A stretch of DNA of 62,919 nt from a virus (IMGVR_UViG_3300021962_000100:1-62919); one strand, 5' to 3'. Positions 8,563-62,919 are shown, numbered from the stretch's first letter. Program-made: numbers and translations. The notes: a model not told the origin generated them from the sequence alone.

Positions 8563-11500
8563 TTACTGTTCCTCAACTATATAACCTTTTGCAACATACT
8601 CTTGTATCTGTTTAGGAGTTAATTCCATTTCAATTATACCACCTTCTTTAAATCTTTTTGGAGGTGGTTTTAAATGTGGATTTTTAAGTAACATTCCTTC
8701 ACCCACTGTATGATGAGACTGTATTCCAGTACCATCTGGCCAAGTAAAACCTTTTAAGCTTCCTTTTGATTTAAAATACTTCTTAACGTAAGCTCTTTCT
8801 TTCTTAGATAATTCATCTGTTTGGAATACAGTATCAACTCCTTCTTTAGGTCCTTTGGTAACTCTATCGTATACTGTATCATAAGTTATTTTCCCAAGAA
8901 GTCCAAGTGTTGGGACAGCCAATATAAGAGGTACAATGACCTGTCTAAAACTTTTTATTTGATTTGCTTGCTGTAAATATTCTCTTTCAAGTTCATTATA
9001 CTCATTGACCTGCTTATGATAAAAATCTAATTGTGCTTGAATTTCATCATATTCTTTTTTTAATTCAGGGTTTCTTTTACCAGCAAGTCTTTCAGCTTTT
9101 TCATCAACAAGTTTATCTAAGTTTCTCATTAGCTGCTGCAATGAATCAGATCTTTCTCTAAGTTTTTGCAATCCTCCATTAATCATATTTTCAATTCTCT
9201 TATAGTCCTGAAAAGTTTTGATTAAATCTGAATCTATTTGACCAGAGGGTAAACTGTTTGCTAAGCTTTCAAAATTATAACGCCTTGTTAAAAGTGATTT
9301 TGGTTTTAAAGCAGTGTTAAGAATTGAGTATTGTAATAAGTCTTTAGCTTCATTAAAGTCACCTAAAATAGATGAGTAATATGAAGTTCCATAAGTATCT
9401 CCTTCAACTATTGATGCAGATCTTACACCAAGTCTTTCAGTTATTTCATTATATATCTTTTGTATATTTTTTTTGCTGGCATCACTCATTGCCATTTTTC
9501 CTAAAATACTGTTAGATAACAAGTCACCTGTTTTATTAATTGATGACATTGCTTCCTCATTATAAAGAGGACCACTATGATGCTTAATAATATCTGTAAC
9601 AATTTCTTTTTGTTCAGGAGTAAATACTCCACCACCGGATGTTGCAAATTTTACACTATTAACATATTCAACTGGATTAGTTGCATTAACATTTAATCCA
9701 TATTGCATTTGACCTAATATATTTCCTTGATGGTTTGGATTACCAAGTTTAACAGTATTTAAACCAAAACCTCTTAAAGTTCCTCCACCTTGTGTAATAT
9801 CCCATTTTTTAAATGAGTTCTCTAAATCTTCTATTGTTCCTCTATGTGATACTTGTCTATTGTGTACAGAATTATTTATATAAAAGTCATTTAAAGCAAG
9901 TTGCATTCTTTCAGGATTTTGTGCAACAGATTCTATATCTCCAATAAAATCCATTAATCTTAATGCTTCAATATTTGCATTAACGTCAGATAATGCCTCA
10001 GTAGATAACTGTGGTCCTATTGATCCTTTAGATCCTACTAAACTTTGTACATAAGTTTCTTGAGCTTTTTTAACAGTATTAACATTCCCATAATTTATAT
10101 AAGTGTCAATTCTATTAACATGTTTACTTTTACTTGATTCATACGCGTCTACAATTGTTTTAATTGCAGGATCAATTTTATCCATGAATTCTTTTGCAGA
10201 AATATTAATTTCTAAACCTAGCATTTCAGGATCAACTAAACTTGTTTTCATTAGGTTTATAAAACTTCCGGTTGAATTGGGATGTTTTTCTTTAATTTTA
10301 TTACCTAACCTTTCAATGGCTTTCTTTTGTTGAGCATAATATTCATCTGGAAAAAATTGTCTAAATAATTCTAATTCAATAGATCTTTTTTCTCCAGTTA
10401 ATGGATTAGAAGTCCAATTGACTTTTACTGTACCATTTGGATTAGTATGAATTATATTAAAATCAATATTGCCTTCCTCACCTGGAATACCAATATTATG
10501 AACTTTAGCAGGTCCTTTATCTAGTACATGCTGTAAAGTATTTTTTACTTTGTTATCATAATCTTTATCTAAAATAAGTACATCTACATCTCCAGTTAAA
10601 TGTGGTAAACCCCCTTCTGTAACACCAACCGCTGAACCATAAACTTTACCTCCAGTAAGTTGTTCAACATGTTTTATATTATCATTTAATGTTGTTAAGT
10701 ATTCTGGTGATACGACTGGATTACTGTTACCTTCATGGATATATTCTAGTTTTTTATCTTTAGGACTAATAACCATAGATTTAGATGGCATTTCAACTAA
10801 AGCTTGTACAGGTTTACCAGTTTTAAATGAAGTAATTTGACCTTCTCCTTTTGTGATTGCTTCGGATAAAGGAGAACCTTTTTCAATTTTTAAACCTTTA
10901 TCTGTTATTTGAATATTTGGAATATTTCTTTCAAGACGCGCAATCTCTCCTTGTTTTTTAAAACTATCTAGTAACTGTCGTGAATCTATTCCTGTACGTT
11001 CTAAAGCATGTGGTAAAATATTTTTTACTTTATCAACTTCTGCAAGATATTGATTTGAAACACCAATTGCTTTATGAGTTTGATCTATGTATTGATTATA
11101 AGCATTACGAGATATTTGATTAGATTCCTCAGCTAATTTTCTTAAAGCTTTATCTCTGAATGTAATTGCTTTTGCTGTATTTTTTGAGAAATTTTTTAAT
11201 CCTCTTTTACCCTTTCCAATAGCACCAATTAATAAACTTAAACCAGCTTCATTTACATTTGGGTTCTCCTCATCTAAGAAAGCATCAGCCATACCAACAG
11301 CAGATAATACAGTAGGAAGGTTGTTTAATACCTTACTCATTATATTAAAGTTCTGTGGTTTATCTTTTACAATATCATATAGTCTTAATGGGAATTTTTC
11401 TCCTGTAGTTTTTCTATAGTCTTTGTAACGATCCTTAAGCATTTTAGGAGTTATCTTATCATAAGCATTTTTGATAATACCCTGCTGTAATAGATCCTCT

Positions 11501-50990: not shown

Positions 50991-53900
50991 TTATAATAGT
51001 GTCCAAGTGCAATCTGGATCAAATCTAACTACTGAGTAATCTGTTCCTGCGGTTATATTATGACCTATTAGTCTGACATAATTACCCGAAGCACTTGGTG
51101 CAGTTTCAGTTACGTCACCTGCCGTTCTTGATACATATAGTGGTACACCATAATTACTTATTGGGTGTTGCTCGTGATAAGTAGTTGAATATATACCATT
51201 TAACAATACTGCAAATGTTCCGTTAGAACTAACATTATCAAGTGCAATACCTAATAGATTAATTGTATTTGATGTATCTGCATCTGCCAATTCCCAAGTT
51301 CCATCTGACCTTTGAGATACTAATTGTCCTTTAGAGGCTGAACCCGAAGTTGTAAAAGTAACATCAGTTAAAACAAGACCATTGTAGTAATTATCTGCCC
51401 ATCCTTGAAGTTGAGGGTATCTATTAACTTGAGAAGAACCCATATTTGCAATAGCAGTTATTCCCGATAAATCAGTTGCACCTGCCCAAAATGTATCTCC
51501 ACCTGTCCAAGTTAAGTTTTGTGAATTACCTATAAGACTTGTAGTACCAACCATTGTTAATCCACTACCATCAAATAATAAGTTTGATTCGGCAGTTGCT
51601 CCACCAGCACCATTAGATGTTAGTACTTCATTATCTGATCCTGGAATAGAACCTCCTCCACCAGTAGGCCCCTGAACACCCTGAGTACCTTGTGTACCAG
51701 TACCAATAATACCTTGTATACCTTGCGCACCAGTACTTCCCGTAGCACCTGTAGTACCTTGTGATCCTGTAGCTCCCGTTGATCCTGTAGTCCCTTGTGC
51801 ACCAGTGGCTCCAGTACTACCTGTTGTTCCCTGTGATCCAGTGGCACCGGTAGAACCCGTAGTTCCTTGAGAACCAGTAGAACCTGTTGCTCCAATAGCT
51901 CCCTGAGCACCAGTTGCTCCAGTAGTACCTATAGCTCCTTGAGCTCCTGTAGGTCCAGTTGAACCAGTTGCGCCTTGATTTCCTTGTGGACCAGTAGACC
52001 CAATGATACCCTGAATTCCCTGTGCACCTGTAGCACCTGTTGAACCAGTTGTTCCCTGACTTCCTGTTGCACCAGTAGATCCAACAGATCCTTGAGTACC
52101 TATGGCGCCTTGTGCTCCTGTACTTCCTGTACTACCTATAATTCCCTGGATACCTTGTGCTCCGGTTAAACCTGTAGTACCTGTTGTACCTTGTCTTCCC
52201 TGAATACCTTGTAATCCTTGAACACCTTGTATGCCTTGAAGTCCAGTGGCTCCTGTAGTTCCCTGTGCTCCAGTATTACCAGTTGCACCAGTAAATCCTT
52301 GAATACCTTGGGCTCCAACTCCACCAGTAGCACCTGTAGAACCTTGAGAACCTATAGTTCCTTGAAGACCAGTGCTACCTTGACTACCAGTTGCACCGAT
52401 AGAACCTTGTGTACCAATAGTTCCTTGAGAACCTGTACTACCAATTGCACCTTGTGCTCCCGTAGCTCCAGTTATGCCCTGAGATCCTACACTACCTTGA
52501 GAACCAGTAGCTCCCGTAGTACCTTGTGATCCGGTTGCACCAACACTACCTTGTGTTCCAGTTGTTCCTTGGGAACCAGTGCTTCCAACTGCTCCTTGAG
52601 ATCCAGTTGCTCCTACTGTACCTTGTGCACCTGTGATACCTTGAATACCTTGAGATCCAGTATTTCCAGTTGTTCCTGTTGTACCTTGACGGCCTTGAAT
52701 ACCCTGTACACCCTGAGTTCCTATAGTTCCTTGTGCACCGGTAGCACCCGTTGTCCCTTGACTTCCAATAGCACCCTGGACTCCTGTATTACCAGTTGTC
52801 CCTGTGGTACCCTGAGCTCCAGTGGTTCCTTGAGAACCGGTTGCTCCAGTAGTTCCTGTTGATCCTTGACTACCTGTTGTGCCTTGTGAACCAGTACTAC
52901 CAGTAGATCCTTGTGAACCAGTTGCTCCGGTTGTACCTTGTGAGCCTGTGGGACCTAATGGACCTGTTATACCTTGAATTCCTTGTATACCTTGGGAACC
53001 AGTAGCACCTGTGTTACCTGTAATACCTTGTATACCCTGAGAACCAGTAGATCCAGTTGCACCTGTAGTTCCTTGGCTACCTACAGTACCTTGAGCTCCT
53101 GTGGATCCGGTAGTTCCTTGACTTCCTGTTGCACCAGTGCTTCCTTGTGTTCCTACAGCTCCTTGAGTTCCGGTAGAACCAATTGCTCCCTGTGCACCTG
53201 TTGCACCAGTTTGTCCTTGTAAACCTGTTAAACCTTGAAGACCTGTAGTTCCCTGAGATCCGGTAGCCCCTGTTGTACCAGTGGTTCCCTGACTTCCAGT
53301 TGTACCTTGGCTGCCTATTGCTCCTTGTGATCCAGTAGCACCAGTAGTTCCAGTTGAACCCTGTGTTCCAGTAGTACCTTGTGCTCCTGTCAAACCAGTT
53401 GTACCTTGTGAACCTATAGCCCCTTGAGCACCTGTGTTACCAGTAGTTCCAGTGCTACCTTGTGATCCAGTAGTTCCCTGTGAGCCAGTACTTCCTGTAC
53501 TTCCTTGTGATCCGGTAGTTCCAGTAGTACCTTGAGCACCAACTGGACCTATTACACCTTGTATACCTTGAATACCAGTTAAACCTTGTAAACCAGTAGT
53601 TCCTTGAATTCCTTGTATTCCCTGAATACCTTGTGTCCCTTGAGATCCAGTTAAACCTGTAGTACCTTGAGACCCAGTTGTTCCTTGCGCACCCGTGGAA
53701 CCTGTAGATCCCTGACTACCCGTATTTCCTGTTGTCCCCTGAGCTCCAACAGATCCTTGTGATCCTGTTGATCCAGTAGAACCTTGCGCACCTGTAGCTC
53801 CAACAGTACCTTGACTGCCAGTTATACCTTGACTTCCTATTGTACCCTGTAAACCTACGGATCCTTGGGATCCAATAGTACCCTGACTTCCAACTGTTCC

Positions 53901-56807
53901 TTGTGCTCCGGTTGTTCCCTGAGTACCAGTATTACCAAGTATACCTTGAATACCCTGAATTCCCTGTAAACCAGTTGATCCAGTAGTCCCTTGTGAACCA
54001 ATAGTACCTTGCGCTCCAGTTGTACCAGTGCTACCTTGAGCACCAGTTGTACCTATTGCACCCTGTGTCCCAACAGCACCTTGGCTACCAGTTGAACCAG
54101 TACTTCCTTGAGAGCCTGTTGCACCTATAGATCCTTGTAATCCTAAAGTTCCTTGCACACCTTGGGATCCAAGAGTACCCTGTACACCTTGAGAACCGGT
54201 AATTCCTTGAGTTCCCTGTGAACCAGTTGTTCCTTGTACTCCTAATGTACCCTGTACACCCTGTATTCCTAATGTTCCTTGAATACCTTGGATGCCCAAT
54301 GTACCTTGAACTCCTTGAATACCAATAGAGCCTTGTGTACCTTGTGGACCTGTTACATTACCAACATCATCCCATTCAGTACCATCCCAAACCCATAAGT
54401 GTCCAGTATCTGTTGTAATATAACCATCACCTACATTTCCGGTATATGAGTTTGGATACCCAGGTAATGATGTTGAAGTAGATACACTACCTAAAATAGT
54501 TACTGAGTTACCTGAAATACCTTGTGTACCGGTTAATCCCTGAATACCTTGTATGCCTTGTAGACCAGTGATACCCTGGATTCCTTGAATTCCCTGTGTA
54601 CCTGTTGTACCCTGAGATCCAATCTGACCTTGTACTCCTAATGTTCCCTGAGTTCCTTGTATACCAAGAATACCTTGCGTGCCTTGAGCACCTGTATTTC
54701 CAGTTATACCTTGTGTACCTTGTGATCCATTTAAACCAGCAGTTCCTTGTGATCCTATAGCACCTTGTACACCAGTAGAGCCTGTAGTACCTTGACTACC
54801 AGTAGCTCCAGTAGTACCTTGATTACCTAATGTTCCCTGCACTCCTTGGATTCCCTGGACACCTTGAATACCCTGACTACCAATAGCACCTTGACTTCCA
54901 GTAACACCTTGTATACCTTGTGTTCCTTGGACACCAATAGGACCAATTTGACCCTGCACACCTTGAATTCCTTGTGATCCTACAGATCCTTGTGTACCTG
55001 TAGTACCTTGATTTCCTAAAATTCCTTGTATTCCCTGTGACCCAGTAGAGCCTTGGGTTCCTGTAATACCTTGTGAACCTGTAGAACCAGTTGTTCCTTG
55101 TGATCCAGTATCTCCTGTTATACCTTGTATACCAATAGATCCTTGAGCACCAGTGCTTCCTGTAGATCCTTGAGATCCTGTATTACCAAGTGTACCTTGT
55201 ACGCCTTGTAAACCAATACTTCCCTGAGAACCAACAGATCCCTGGGATCCAATTAGACCTTGGCTACCAGTTGTCCCTTGAACACCTAAAATACCTTGTG
55301 TACCTTGAGTACCTTGACTACCAGTAATACCTGTTGAACCTTGAGTTCCGGTTGTACCCTGACTACCAGTTGATCCTGTAGAACCCTGACTTCCAGTATT
55401 TCCCGTAGTACCTTGGCTTCCAGTCACTCCTTGTAGACCCACAGATCCTTGAGTACCCACACTTCCTTGTGTACCTATTGAACCTTGTGTACCTAAAGTT
55501 CCCTGAACTCCCTGAATACCTTGGGTGCCTTGTACCCCTTGGATACCTAATAAACCTTGTATGCCTTGAATTCCCTGAGAACCGGTTAATCCTTGTAATC
55601 CAGTGCTACCTTGACTACCTGTGTTACCTGTTGTTCCTTGTGGACCAGTTGTGCCTTGTACTCCCTGAGATCCAAGAGCTCCTTGTGAGCCAGTTGTACC
55701 TGTAGATCCCTGTGTACCAGTAGATCCTTGAGATCCAGTGCTACCAGTGCTACCCTGAGAACCTGTGTTTCCAGTGGTACCCTGCACTCCTTGAATACCT
55801 AATTGACCTTGTGTACCAGTACTTCCTTGAGTACCAGTAATACCTTGTGATCCAGTAGTACCTTGTAAACCTAATAATCCTTGAGTACCTTGAGTACCCT
55901 GTGATCCTGTAAGACCAGTTGATCCTTGAATACCAACAGCACCTTGTGAGCCAGTAGATCCAGTGGATCCCTGACTACCAGTATTACCTACAGTACCCTG
56001 TGGACCGATTACACCTTGCAATCCTTGTGTACCCTGAGTACCTATTTGCCCTTGAGTTCCTGTAGTACCTTGTTGTCCATTACTTCCTTGGACACCTTGA
56101 ATTCCTATTTGACCTTGTATACCTTGAGTACCTTGGATTCCTTGATCTCCTCTTTCCCCCTGTATACCTTGGATACCTTGTAGACCTACAATACCTTGAG
56201 AACCAGTGTTACCTGTAGTTCCCTGTGGGCCTGTAGTACCTTGCACTCCTTGTGAACCTAATGCTCCTTGAGAACCTGTTGTTCCAGTTTCTCCTTGGGC
56301 ACCTATTGTACCTTGAGCACCGGTAGATCCTGTGGTACCTTGTGAACCAGTATCACCTTTAATACCTTGTGCACCAACAGTTCCTTGAGCTCCAGTAGAT
56401 CCTACAGCTCCTTGTGGACCTATAACACCAATCTGTCCTTGAACTCCGGTAATACCTTGTACACCCTGAATTCCTAAAGATCCTTGTGTTCCTTGTGTAC
56501 CCTGAGCACCTTGTGTTCCTACTACAGTACCACTTGCAACCCAATCTACAATATACTGTAAACCTTGGGCAACTGTTGTATCCTGAGGAATAATAGTTTG
56601 TTGTGATGCATCTATATCTTCTCCTGTATATACAACACAATTAGCATCCGTTACTTCTGCACATTGTTCATCTTCAGGACAAGGATCAGGTGTAGGGCAT
56701 GCAGGCGGAGTTGTTATACCAGATGTACATACAGAACATTTTCCACAGTTATTACACCCTGTGTTAGTAAAAATACTTTCAAGTTGACTGGATCTTTTAG
56801 GGATCAT
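50991..56807 (-). CDS. Giant collagen-like fibre protein
   Basis: 1938 aa. Cys-rich N-terminus, two G-X-Y arms separated by a ~55-aa globular insert, C-terminal beta domain. Confidence 0.9.
51663..56519 (-). repeat. G-X-Y coding repeat (~520 triplets; G-x-Q-G-x-[QT] hexapeptide period)
   Basis: Arms at ~54513-56519 and ~51663-54350 show 9/18-nt periodicity with diverged third codon positions. Confidence 0.95.
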
Positions 56808-60845: not shown

Positions 60846-61061
60846 ATGAATAGTATTATAACTCGGGTTATATCTAACCCTCATTCTAAGACTAGTGTGA
60901 TCTGCTATCCCAACGGTATGAAACCTTTTGTGATTAGCAAATCCAAAGCTAAAGCTTTGAAGGCTGGCAAGACCTACCTTGTAGATCTTAGAGCCAGCAC
61001 TGCAGGCTATGTCTATTCAGTCATAGTCCGCGGAGAACTAGCATTAAAGAAAGGGAAGTAA
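60846..61061 (+). CDS. Small basic early protein
   Basis: 71 aa with A/T-rich leader, followed by a terminator. Confidence 0.65.
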   Translation: MNSIITRVISNPHSKTSVICYPNGMKPFVISKSKAKALKAGKTYLVDLRASTAGYVYSVIVRGELALKKGK

Positions 61062-61076
61062 ATTCCCTTTTCTTTT
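61046..61076 (+). terminator. Intrinsic terminator
   Basis: AAAGGGAA-GTAAA-TTCCCTTT followed by a pyrimidine/T tract. Confidence 0.65.
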
Positions 61077-61087
61077 CCCTCTTTTTT

Positions 61088-61096
61088 CTAGCCCTT
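61088..61096 (+). promoter_or_regulatory. CTAGCCCTT motif copy 2
   Basis: TTCTAGCCCTTAA, 35 nt before the ATG at 61132. Confidence 0.5.
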
Positions 61097-61131
61097 AAAT
61101 TATATTGATAAATCAATAAATTTTATAAATT

Positions 61132-61647
61132 ATGGCTTTACAAGCAAAATTTCTAAGTATTGGCAAAGGTGGGACCTTAGCCATTTATGAAGTGCGTGGC
61201 ACTTCATCTGAACTTGCAACTTACGTAGCAAGCTTTAAAGACAGGGAACCTGCCTTTAAGAGCACCTTGGATGGCAAGCCTATCCTAGATGCTAAGGGAC
61301 AAAAGACTCCGCTTTTGTTCACGGCATATCCTATGCCTGGTAAGAATGTTTGGCATCCTTTGTACCAAAAGGCTGACGGCACATTCACTCTTGATAAACA
61401 AGACCTCAACTTTGAGATCTTGGTTTCCAAGAGTATGGGCGCTGACTTTGGTCAGGCTTATGCATCTGAAGCTGCACGCAGATATGCTGATAGCACATCT
61501 GTATCTTCTACAGCATCATCTATGCTAGCTGATGATGAAGAAGATGAGGCTGATGAAGAGGACTTCACAGCATCAGCATCTGAAGATGCAGAGTTAGATG
61601 TTGTTCCTGAAGAAACAACAGCTAAAGGAGCTAAAACTACCAAGTAG
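61132..61647 (+). CDS. Early protein with acidic C-terminal tail (SSB-like or DNA-mimic candidate)
   Basis: 171 aa, beta-rich N-terminus, DDEEDEADEEDF tail. Confidence 0.6.
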   Translation: MALQAKFLSIGKGGTLAIYEVRGTSSELATYVASFKDREPAFKSTLDGKPILDAKGQKTPLLFTAYPMPGKNVWHPLYQKADGTFTLDKQDLNFEILVSKSMGADFGQAYASEAARRYADSTSVSSTASSMLADDEEDEADEEDFTASASEDAELDVVPEETTAKGAKTTK

Positions 61648-61664
61648 TATTAGCTGAAAAATAT

Positions 61665-61702
61665 AAGAGTAACCACTAACGTGGTTGCTCTTTATTTTTT
61701 TT
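61665..61702 (+). terminator. Intrinsic terminator
   Basis: AAGAGTAACCAC-TAAC-GTGGTTGCTCTT followed by T8. Confidence 0.8.
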
Positions 61703-61729
61703 CCTACCTAAAACTATTCCCTTTTTCTT

Positions 61730-61738
61730 CTAGCCCTT
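61730..61738 (+). promoter_or_regulatory. CTAGCCCTT motif copy 3
   Basis: TTCTAGCCCTTAA after the terminator. Confidence 0.5.
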
Positions 61739-62053
61739 AACTAAATGTGCTATTGTATTCTTTATAGAATACTAATAGAGCCTACCATACAGTATATAGT
61801 ATATATATAAAACAATATGTACAGAATGCTGCGGGACACAGGCTCAATACTTGCTACTTGCTGGTAGATGGTAGGTGTTGTATCTTATATACTGTAAATG
61901 TGAGACAACACTACTTGAAACATGCTTGTATCTGCTTGATTCTGTGTGAGTTGCAGGAAATGAGTGTAAAACACTCTTCATTCCTATACTTGCATCAGTC
62001 TTCACAGATTTCTACAATAGTCTTTACTAATAACAATTAATATAGCTAAAACT

Positions 62054-62314
62054 ATGAACAAAACAACAGACTCATTGGTACTTGGTATTATACTTGGAAC
62101 AGTATTAACAGGATTACTATCCTATATACTATCTTCTTATATACTATTACCATATAAAGGAACAGAGTCATATCCTCCGGCAAAGATCAAAGTTGAATAC
62201 TACTTGGAAGTATCTCAAGATTCTATCAAGATTCAATCAGCTGATTCTAATGCAAGAGTATATGTAGGTAAATACTCTGACCTTGATTCCTTAATTACTA
62301 TTGATAACCAATAG
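62054..62314 (+). CDS. Small membrane-anchored protein
   Basis: 86 aa with an N-terminal TM helix. Confidence 0.65.
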   Translation: MNKTTDSLVLGIILGTVLTGLLSYILSSYILLPYKGTESYPPAKIKVEYYLEVSQDSIKIQSADSNARVYVGKYSDLDSLITIDNQ

Positions 62315-62379
62315 TATTTACTAATCAGTATTCTTGAACAAATGATAGATACAGATTACCTATGTAATTATACTTACAG

Positions 62380-62900
62380 AGTGAGAGGCAGTAATCCTCT
62401 CCGCAACTTGTACAGCTAACCAATAATGCTGTACCTCTTTACTGTTAGCAAACAGTGACAAACCTGTGGGGCTTCTATTGGGTTCTATATATACTCTGCA
62501 AATGTGTATATAGTGCTAAACAAATGGAGATGTGACATTGAATGACTTCCATCTATGCAGACATTTGTAATCCAAAGTTAGTGCAGACTTTAAAACCAGG
62601 TATTTTACACATAGTATATTGATAAAGCTATGTGAGTTTAATTTAAACTAGACAGTTTTATACACGGGAGCAATCTGGCAGTGTGATCCTGTTGACCACA
62701 GCAGTAATATGTGGTATGTCATTTATCTATTCTCCTCCACAAAGATTCCACTTGGGAGAATACAGCTGACTGAAGTGGAATTCAGTGTAATTCGGGTGAT
62801 GACTCAGCGGTCTAATAGCAATGTAGGATATTGTTATACACTTTGAATATTATGACATTATTACTAACAATTAAGTCCTGTGTACCTAGCACAGGCAAGT
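62380..62900 (+). ncRNA. Candidate large structured non-coding RNA
   Basis: About 520 nt without a >=60-aa ORF. At least 9 hairpins, several GNRA-capped, and a complementary loop pair TTCCAC/GTGGAA. Confidence 0.5.
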
Positions 62901-62919
62901 CCTCAAATTTAAATTTAAA

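Follow-up and report, generated by a model that had tools for sequence, protein, structure and literature searches.

A Hatchet ribozyme with a conserved 3' domain and a recurrent substrate-like second site in aquatic phages

The stretch at positions 62380-62900 of a 62,919-nt viral record (IMGVR_UViG_3300021962_000100; we call the whole record the window) almost certainly carries, on the plus strand at 62435-62601, a Hatchet ribozyme, recognized by its match to a covariance model. The ribozyme accounts for no more than the 5' third of a ~460-nt unit. The 3' ~300 nt of the unit are an undescribed, conserved structured domain, at the end of which lies a short sequence laid out like a second Hatchet substrate. 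The best explanation, which we regard as probable, is an RNA-processing cassette on a probably early phage transcript i.e. a Hatchet, its conserved 3' domain and a second site acting together. That both sites are cleaved, that a strand exchange links the two cleavages and that the released RNA has a role are further steps that we infer from how these parts are arranged.

Results

Genomic context

The window is the sole sequence of its own assembly. Long structural genes occupy positions 1-60,500 on the minus strand and a block of small plus-strand genes starts at ~60,580; within this block orf86 (62054-62314, plus strand), which encodes a membrane-like protein of 86 aa, lies upstream of the flagged stretch. 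In relatives the next small gene follows the stretch, and the window itself ends 14 nt past the element. Complete relatives are ~122 kb long, and one has direct terminal repeats. At 28.6% identity to Leptolyngbya phage Lbo-JY46 and 23.6% to two crAss-like phages, the major head protein has only distant relatives among known phages. A blastn search with 61650-62919 gave no match among 50,697 GenBank phage records. At least half of the stretch's sampled words occur in each of 14 DNA runs (11 studies; word matches only), whose labels are marine, estuary, freshwater, lake water and crustacean metagenome. The stretch is a plus-strand, probably early, region of the phage transcript.

Metatranscriptome contigs from two runs of different studies cover 62450-62871 (X17) and 62692-62863 (X19), and may derive from DNA. 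The contigs of four RNA runs contained no joints and no end pile-ups and, being assembled, are uninformative on cleavage ends; none of them lay over 62360-62449 or 62872-62919. One record of X17 (record 5) contains an odd back-joined piece.

A Hatchet ribozyme in the 5' third of the unit

When the whole window was scanned with Rfam 15 at gathering thresholds, the sole hit was to the Hatchet self-cleaving ribozyme (RF02678) at 62435-62601 on the plus strand. This hit scored 81.2 bits against a gathering score of 51 (E 3.1e-15) and spanned positions 1-133 of the 133-position model without truncation; the window holds one copy, on the plus strand only. Weak Rfam matches at 61600-62010 (psbA 3'UTR, MicX, STnc240, AdoCbl-II and others; E 0.2-8.6) were rejected as far under the cut-offs, and mostly overlap a terminator hairpin. 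The earlier note on this stretch had been unable to match it to any known ribozyme and had proposed an Rfam scan as a check; the scan overturns that statement for 62410-62601, which belongs to a known family.

The Rfam alignment locates the expected parts. P1 (UUACUG/CAGUGA, 6 bp, loop AGCA) pairs 62439-62444 with 62453-62458, followed by the CAA linker (62459-62461) and by the 5' strand of P2 (ACCUG, 62462-62466), which pairs with 62597-62601; all three are invariant in 24 of 24 distinct homologous units (described below). P1 can be extended to 8 bp, and its second pair is U-G. P4 (UUGGGUU/AAUCCAA, 62478-62575) carries a long, branched insertion in its loop (62485-62567) with two arms, hairpin 4a (62485-62513, three compensated pairs) and hairpin 4b (62521-62567, shortened in 15 of the 24 units). 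The conserved L2 bases, UGUGGGGC and GUGCAGAC.UUAAAA.CAGG, align to upper-case consensus positions, with a U in the window at a consensus G within GACGUUAAAAU. The L1 loop, whose consensus UGAgAAU is responsible for the L1-L3 contacts, reads UUAGCAAA i.e. it has a U at G8 and a 1-nt insertion; in three loci of other lineages (L053, L274 and L277) it reads UUGAUAAA. P2, P3 and P4 are 100% paired in all 24 units and do not vary within the clade, which makes covariation uninformative here; the assignment to the Hatchet family rests on the Rfam model because P1-P4 never vary within the clade.

In published Hatchets P1 has 3 or 6 bp and stands at the extreme 5' end, and cleavage falls at the base of this helix (PMC4604424 and the available text of PMC6561176); three conserved linker residues separate P1 from P2 (same text of PMC6561176), and about 90% have a P0 hairpin 5' of the cut (available text of PMC4604424). 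Self-cleavage in this class depends on Mg2+ and yields a 2',3'-cyclic phosphate and a 5'-OH. The ribozyme in the window resembles the Hatchet class (RF02678; Weinberg et al., 2015), as set out by Li et al. (2015; PMC4604424) and the accessible part of Zheng et al. (2019; PMC6561176), in its P0, 6-bp P1, CAA linker, P2-P4, L2 bases and predicted cut at the 5' base of P1. It differs from a typical Hatchet in its L1 loop (UUAGCAAA rather than UGAGAAU), its U-G at the second pair of P1 and its two-hairpin P4 branch.

The first cleavage site is predicted at 62438/62439 (CUCU/UUACUG, plus strand), so that the 3' product would start at U62439. This placement was obtained by mapping the env10 numbering (A3-U17, U7, G8-A9-G10, A11-U13; available text of PMC6561176) onto the Rfam consensus; the numbering fits only with nucleotide 1 at model position 5, which is aligned to 62439, and this sets the predicted cut.

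The hairpin P0 (GUACAGC/GCUGUAC, 62410-62434) ends 4 nt ahead of this predicted cut and has a minimum free energy of -9.6 kcal/mol, against -2.5 for shuffles. Its place is taken by non-homologous hairpins in all 19 representatives folded, with folds no better than shuffles in five of them (L001, L007, L008, L011 and L028). A further hairpin upstream (GAGAGG/CCUCUC, 62383-62401) lies outside the conserved unit: it is present with the same flank in the Hatchet-less locus L006, and other sequence stands there in L007-L011 and L001.

Distribution of the unit and a natural empty site

The neighbouring 171-aa protein led to 14 loci in IMG/VR, 10 of which have a Hatchet at the same place. Three of the other four end too early, and the fourth, L006, is long enough to be compared. 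L006 is 93% identical to 62319-62428 and keeps both upstream hairpins (with GUAUGAC/GUCAUAC at the place of P0) and the downstream gene, and it has nothing of the sequence that in the window runs from the Hatchet through the UCA motif of the second site. By this sequence comparison, L006 is a natural empty site.

We searched IMG/VR for further units using a 16-base pattern from H2, a hairpin of the 3' domain, and obtained 38 stretches. Hatchet cores and the tail containing hairpin PA occur at fixed relative positions in 27 of these, as does the terminal hairpin HC except in L020 and L050; the other 11 have none of these parts and were discarded as chance matches. The 27 units are 385-479 nt long (median 447) with a median GC of 35.2%, and leaving out duplicates and one truncated copy gives the 24 distinct units used throughout. 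The inferred excised unit of the window, between the two predicted cuts, is 464 nt long with a GC of 36.9% (62439-62902, plus strand). A looser three-block H2/H3/H4 pattern matched at least 119 stretches in IMG/VR and was abandoned as overrun by chance matches. A scan of genome contigs with the Hatchet 3' core gave 13 stretches, of which only L300, L303 and L306, all from MAGs, had the 5' core as well; these three share a gut-type downstream layout. L054, L061, L067, L087 and L088 were rejected as Hatchets, as only the 3' core pattern matched.

A conserved structured domain 3' of the ribozyme

The ~300 nt at 62602-62905 accompany this Hatchet in 24 distinct phage contigs, and 62602-62919 matches no Rfam family at E<=10. 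Folding of 62380-62919 as a single sequence gave a modest signal on the plus strand (z = -1.83, 3 of 100 shuffles as good) and none on the minus strand (z = +0.29, 60 of 100 shuffles as good). The comparative signal is strong. A hand-written structure was applied to an alignment of the 24 distinct units, with controls in which the partners were slid by 1-3 columns. Standard pairs filled 94.6% of 2033 cells, against 37.2-42.2% in the slid controls; 21 pairs had changed on both sides, against 3-7 in the controls, and none of 500 shuffles reached the observed covariation score. G-U pairs are invariant or common at columns 47-64, 78-191, 89-180, 219-241 and 436-452, and read from the opposite strand these would be A-C mismatches, which identifies plus as the strand of the RNA. 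We are highly confident that the 3' domain is a real structured RNA. The earlier note had favoured a plus-strand RNA on account of G-U pairs and GNRA loops, and a plus-strand structured RNA is supported here.

The domain begins with hairpin PA (CACATAGT/GCTATGTG, 62608-62634), which is 99.4% paired and in which column 219-241 is UG in 13 units, CG in 9 and UA in 1. PA is followed, through 62650, by a near-invariant AU-rich stretch, GAGUUUAAUUUAAACUA, and then by a variable segment (62651-62720) of which there are at least five unrelated versions and which is absent from L017 and L049. Among the first 14 loci only L007 matched the window here; the version with the hairpins GGA-GCAA-TCT (62667-62676) and ACCACA/TGTGGT (62695-62715) is common to 7 of the 24 units, as read from the alignment. 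Other replaceable segments between the conserved blocks are P0, the tip of P4 and the AU-rich spacer before HC.

Beyond the variable segment stand two hairpins with two compensated pairs each, H1 (TATTCTCC/GGAGAATA, 62728-62762, with TTCCAC in its loop) and H2 (ACTGAA/TTCAGT, 62769-62786, loop GTGGAA). These are followed by helix J (62790-62798 with 62839-62848), which in single-sequence folds closes a three-way junction around H3 (62801-62812, loop UCAGCG, two compensated pairs) and H4 (62815-62837, loop GUAGGAU, six of eight pairs compensated). An enclosing helix of at least 3 pairs was found in 17 of 20 distinct sequences, the J sequences differing among units. The domain ends with the terminal hairpin HC (CCUGUG/CACAGG, 62877-62895, loop UACCUAG), 100% paired and with three of its six pairs compensated. 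RNAalifold, applied to 17 of the 24 units, gave a candidate pseudoknot of GCUGA (62765-62769) with UCAGC in the H3 loop (62804-62808), both sides of which are invariant in the units analysed and so provide no covariation for or against it. As read from the alignment, UAGG of the H4 loop can pair with CCUA of the HC loop, and in L050 the corresponding pairing is UGGGAA with UUCCCA. Neither the pseudoknot nor the H4-HC contact was found in the other lineages.

All of the hairpins in the earlier note are present on the plus strand at the positions given there (62383-62401, 62410-62434, 62440-62457 as TACTGTT/AACAGTG, 62485-62513 with 10 bp, 62608-62634, 62667-62676, 62695-62715, 62728-62762, 62769-62786 and 62877-62895), and 62410-62434, 62440-62457 and 62485-62513 find their places as P0, P1 and a branch of P4. 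Their grouping into one RNA holds in part, as 62383-62401 and 62410-62434 are replaced by unrelated hairpins elsewhere, and the loop GCAA at 62498-62501, which had been taken for a GNRA loop, lies in a 9-nt loop. The first reading, in which the whole ~520 nt form one novel RNA of no known class that acts as ribozyme, decoy or scaffold, draws on the complex fold, the conserved loops and the lack of an Rfam match at E<=10 in the 3' 300 nt, and it is right in that these are an undescribed conserved domain. As an account of the whole it is nevertheless very improbable: 167 nt are Hatchet, which contradicts it for 62410-62601, the 5' third being of known type, and the first two hairpins are outside the unit and not conserved with the remainder.

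A DNA-level element (an origin, a promoter or protein-binding palindromes) or a set of short conserved peptides is barely credible as an explanation of this conservation. The sequence AGTTTAATTTAAACT at 62635-62649 is a perfect DNA palindrome and one sigma-70-like match lies nearby, but promoter-like matches number 6 against a shuffle mean of 8.4, the stems carry compensatory changes and G-U pairs are retained on the plus strand only. Against peptides, no ORF is common to the units and the indels are not multiples of three. The region is apparently an early one, in agreement with the early phage RNA of the earlier note.

Loop-loop complementarity across lineages

The loops of H1 and H2 are complementary (UUCCAC, 62746-62751; GUGGAA, 62775-62780), and this candidate kissing loop, proposed in the earlier note, is invariant in 24 of 24 units and hence uninformative within the clade. 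Further lineages came from a scan for Hatchets of the same sequence type without the tail of this clade; these lineages (L053/L101, L274-276 and L277) are all Hatchets by Rfam, L274 scoring 82.6 bits and L277 60.6 bits, and their downstream regions cannot be aligned with the window. The order of parts is kept in each i.e. Hatchet, H1 and H2 with complementary loops, a terminal hairpin and AGUCC/UCA. The H1 and H2 hairpins of these lineages were taken from single-sequence folds, a MAFFT alignment of H1-H2 across lineages having been discarded because L053 and L274 were misaligned in it.

In L053, L274 and L277 the stems of H1 and H2 are wholly different and the loops are still complementary. 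L274 and L277 have UUCCAU with GUGGAA, where the C-to-U change retains a G-U pair, and L053 has ACCAC with GUGGU, where the U-A pair has become A-U. One compensatory and one wobble change across lineages are suggestive support for the loop-loop contact at the level of sequence; the contact is plausible, with compatible changes between lineages and no covariation inside the clade.

A second substrate-like site

After HC comes a second substrate-like site (GUCC/UCA, 62899-62905, plus strand), with a predicted cut at 62902/62903. UCA at 62903-62905 is complementary to UGA at 62456-62458, the base of P1, and pairs with it better than the native UUA, which gives a U-G pair. The two sites share a layout, in which a hairpin and a short linker (U at -3, C at -2) are followed by a triplet compatible with the UGA of P1. 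HC is thus placed ahead of the second site as P0 is ahead of the first. Homology among the units stops at UCA, and the conserved region ends in a hairpin and AGUCC/UCA in all four lineages, with AGUCG/UCA in its place in four units.

We tested how often such a motif, defined by its compatibility with P1 as GUCN plus a P1-compatible triplet, lies within 450 nt downstream of a Hatchet. The test set comprised 153 distinct Hatchets, all flanked on both sides by 460 nt or more, among them two gut crAss-like types with P1 of 3 bp and 6 bp. The motif was present downstream of 151 of the 153, many of which are close relatives and far from independent; it was found for 25 of 153 in 420 nt far upstream and, when the downstream stretch was reverse-complemented, for 28 of 153. 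The motif is short, with ~6 informative bases and a chance rate of 16-18% of control stretches. When the Hatchets were grouped by similarity of the downstream region, 10 of 11 clusters had the motif and one lacked it. The distance from Hatchet to motif is lineage-specific, about 50 to 330 nt. In L300 (Hatchet score 90.9 bits) P1 is ACA...UGU and the downstream motif is GUCGUCC/ACA, where its relatives have UCA...UGA and GUCG/UCA.

From these sequence comparisons we put the chance that the second site is a real Hatchet substrate a little short of even. The chief competing account is that the RNA is cut only once, at 62438/62439, that the 3' domain is a stable structured 5' leader which shields the following early mRNA or regulates its translation, and that GUCCUCA is a pseudo-substrate, a protein site or a relic. 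In favour of it, the unit is always directly before a start codon, at 17-35 nt in most loci; the Hatchet stays on the 3' product (available text of PMC6561176; PMC8782182); and an 8-bp P1 disfavours strand exchange. A further point against the cassette is that the spacing between second site and next AUG is not constant, ranging from about 17 to 70 nt. This account leaves unexplained, however, why a substrate signature recurs after Hatchets of unrelated lineages and why P1 and the second site changed jointly in L300. The exact stop of homology at UCA also counts against it, as does the downstream gene, which differs among loci and in L006 is present without the leader. We hold a single cut possible, though on balance doubtful, and prefer the cassette with two sites.

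Comparison with circular Hatchet RNAs

According to the available text of Lee et al. (bioRxiv 10.1101/2022.07.19.500677), Hatchets occur in 34 clusters of 'viroid-like' circular RNAs (cccRNAs) of 357-567 nt; the largest cluster, of 440 nt, is almost all from freshwater, the GC has a median of 35% and only one polarity carries the Hatchet. Terminal repeats in assemblies served to call the circles, and that text mentions no DNA filter. The units described here are like these RNAs in length (385-479 nt), median GC (35.2%), aquatic origin and possession of one plus-strand Hatchet, a likeness by size, GC and habitat only; they are unlike them in that each is found once in the genome, of about 120 kb, of a dsDNA phage. 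This fit in size, GC and habitat suggests that the reported Hatchet circles are products of the phage cassette.

The same match also agrees with a selfish or passenger element, in which a viroid-like Hatchet circular RNA was copied into DNA and inserted in phage early regions, without function for the phage. Such an insertion would account for the presence/absence polymorphism, with boundaries near both sites (L051 compared with L006), and for the differing P0 hairpins and flanking genes. We nevertheless judge it unlikely, as there is one Hatchet copy per record in five large relatives (87-123 kb), and the same plus-strand gene block and orientation recur in every locus examined. A scan of IMG/VR for a GUCC-UUACUG junction gave two matches, both by chance, and no tandem or permuted copy was found there. 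Metagenome contigs were searched with AAGTCCTCA, a gap of 0-8 nt and the beginning of P1, and the 20 stretches returned all lacked a Hatchet core; the expected junction differs from this pattern, GUCC being joined directly to UUACUG.

Discussion

The probable cassette would act on the phage transcript as follows. By homology to other Hatchets, the ribozyme would almost certainly cut its own transcript at 62438/62439. The upstream orf86 mRNA would then have the P0 hairpin at its 3' end, closed by a 2',3'-cyclic phosphate, and the downstream RNA would begin with a 5'-OH at U62439. The ribozyme would stay joined to the ~300-nt domain of PA, the variable insert, the kissing H1 and H2, the junction of J, H3 and H4, and HC. 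With the 5' end released by the first cut, UCA at 62903-62905 could displace the weak bottom pairs of P1 (U-A, U-G and A-U), and the same ribozyme might then cut at 62902/62903, releasing a 464-nt RNA with 5'-OH and cyclic-phosphate ends and leaving the next early gene with a short AU-rich leader. The compact, cross-linked 3' domain could serve to return the 3' site to the ribozyme. A P1 able to form 8 bp should, however, disfavour invasion by the 3-nt UCA.

Parts of this scheme have parallels in known systems. HDV-like ribozymes set where R2/L1Tc retrotransposon RNAs begin, and theta ribozymes adjoin phage tRNAs; in both, as would be the case here, cleavage at the ribozyme's own 5' edge detaches an RNA from upstream sequence. 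The ribozyme in the window is of another class, and the unit contains neither reverse transcriptase nor tRNA. In T7, RNase III sites between early genes split the polycistronic transcript into hairpin-ended pieces; unlike that processing, which relies on a host enzyme, the cut here would be autocatalytic. RNAs of plant and animal retrozymes and of the engineered 'Tornado' twister cassette are cut twice, and RtcB-type ligases join ends of the kind that result, a 5'-OH and a 2',3'-cyclic phosphate. These systems use two ribozyme copies, whereas one Hatchet would here serve two sites.

All 210 Hatchets known at the time came from metagenomic DNA and none from a fully sequenced organism, according to the available text of Li et al. 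(2015; PMC4604424). The accessible part of a 2026 preprint (10.64898/2026.03.07.710320) reports that Hatchets are largely confined to Crassvirales genomes, and a Hatchet in a crAss-like-related phage is not new because this preprint already places them there. What goes beyond the Hatchet literature consulted is the attached 3' domain, the recurrent second site and the match in size and GC to the circles. The fixed 300-nt 3' domain and the downstream substrate-like site set the present unit apart from the Hatchets of PMC4604424 and PMC6561176, whose available text mentions neither. The literature consulted gave no biological role for Hatchets, and no paper in it was found to link them to a downstream second site or to phage-encoded circles.

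The Hatchet now has a defined gene context i.e. a plus-strand block near one genome end in ~120-kb aquatic phages that are distantly crAss-like-related, and the recurrent downstream site makes a testable prediction, two cuts and one released RNA, which bears on what Hatchets are for. A more speculative reading, to which we give limited credence, is that Hatchets are two-site excision devices whose ~460-nt RNA would be ligated into a circle, that the aquatic Hatchet viroid-like circles would be products of dsDNA crAss-like phages and not RNA replicons, and that the domain with the kissing loop and three-way junction would be either a functional cargo or a scaffold, delivering the 3' site to the ribozyme's catalytic centre. 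If the released RNA and the published Hatchet circles are the same, part of the aquatic 'viroid-like' RNA world would consist of DNA-phage transcripts, and the data sets in which it was described would be read differently.

Sequences upstream of the Hatchet unit

The plus-strand block of small genes that holds the Hatchet unit (the Hatchet ribozyme together with its 3' domain of about 300 nt) contains a 13-mer, TTCTAGCCCTTAA, which occurs exactly twice in the window, at 61086-61098 and 61728-61740. Both copies lie approximately 15-36 nt past a hairpin that resembles a terminator and has a T-run (61049-61071 and 61665-61692, respectively), and each has a plus-strand gene downstream. The equivalent position in L006, a related locus that lacks the Hatchet unit, reads TTCTAGCCCATAA. 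Within this gene block, TTCTAGCCCTTAA is a candidate for a promoter or a processing motif.

The ∼310 nt running from the second copy to the start of orf86, an 86-aa membrane-like ORF (window 61741-62053), are conserved, with 90-93% identity in the related loci L001, L002, L003 and L014. No convincing ORF was found within this stretch, and its sole Rfam match was a weak AdoCbl-II-like one, whose 16.3 bits fall short of the 36.5-bit cut-off. The stretch may be a second structured leader.

Hairpins at the Hatchet position

Comparison with L006 (7240-7470) revealed that the orf86-like gene, the two hairpins that precede the Hatchet cut in the window and the downstream gene are all kept when the Hatchet unit is absent, and that a GC hairpin followed by a T-run occupies the unit's place. 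The same GC hairpin recurs in another locus, L051, where it serves as P0, i.e. the hairpin just 5' of the Hatchet cut. In two other Hatchet lineages, L274 (∼10880-10920) and L277 (minus strand, just 5' of Hatchet), P0 leads into a stretch of 5-6 U that abuts the predicted cut, an arrangement that looks like an intrinsic terminator immediately 5' of the ribozyme.

Multiple Hatchets and a back-joined RNA contig

Among the gut crAss-like IMG/VR loci (L052-L159), more than one Hatchet was present in 58 of the 146 Hatchet-bearing strand-loci, the typical pair combining a 6-bp and a 3-bp P1 (the helix at the cut) at a spacing of 1.5-3.3 kb. A few loci, such as L103 and L110, carry an extra Hatchet 5' core only ∼210 nt upstream of a complete Hatchet.

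One 98-nt RNA-library contig (record 5 of metatranscriptome run X17) aligns to window 62493-62517 and then to 62450-62522, doubling back within the AU-rich branch of helix P4; this back-joining probably arose when the hairpin was misassembled.

Genome position

The window contains no tRNA gene, and stops short of the place at which relatives carry one, on the same strand as Hatchet and 3.4-4.7 kb 3' of the Hatchet position (L001 10052-10125, L014 5771-5844, L006 11687-11760, L007 11881-11952 and L009 11054-11127). Elsewhere in the window, on the minus strand, collagen-like tail-fibre repeats make up most of a 1938-aa ORF (50991-56807), whose matches span 40 PHROG families, with at most 24 matched stretches per family.

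The relative G004, from which locus L026 comes, is complete and carries direct terminal repeats; its Hatchet lies at 118814-118950 of 122794, leaving ∼4 kb to the right genome end. Such a location is consistent with a region that is injected early and transcribed early.
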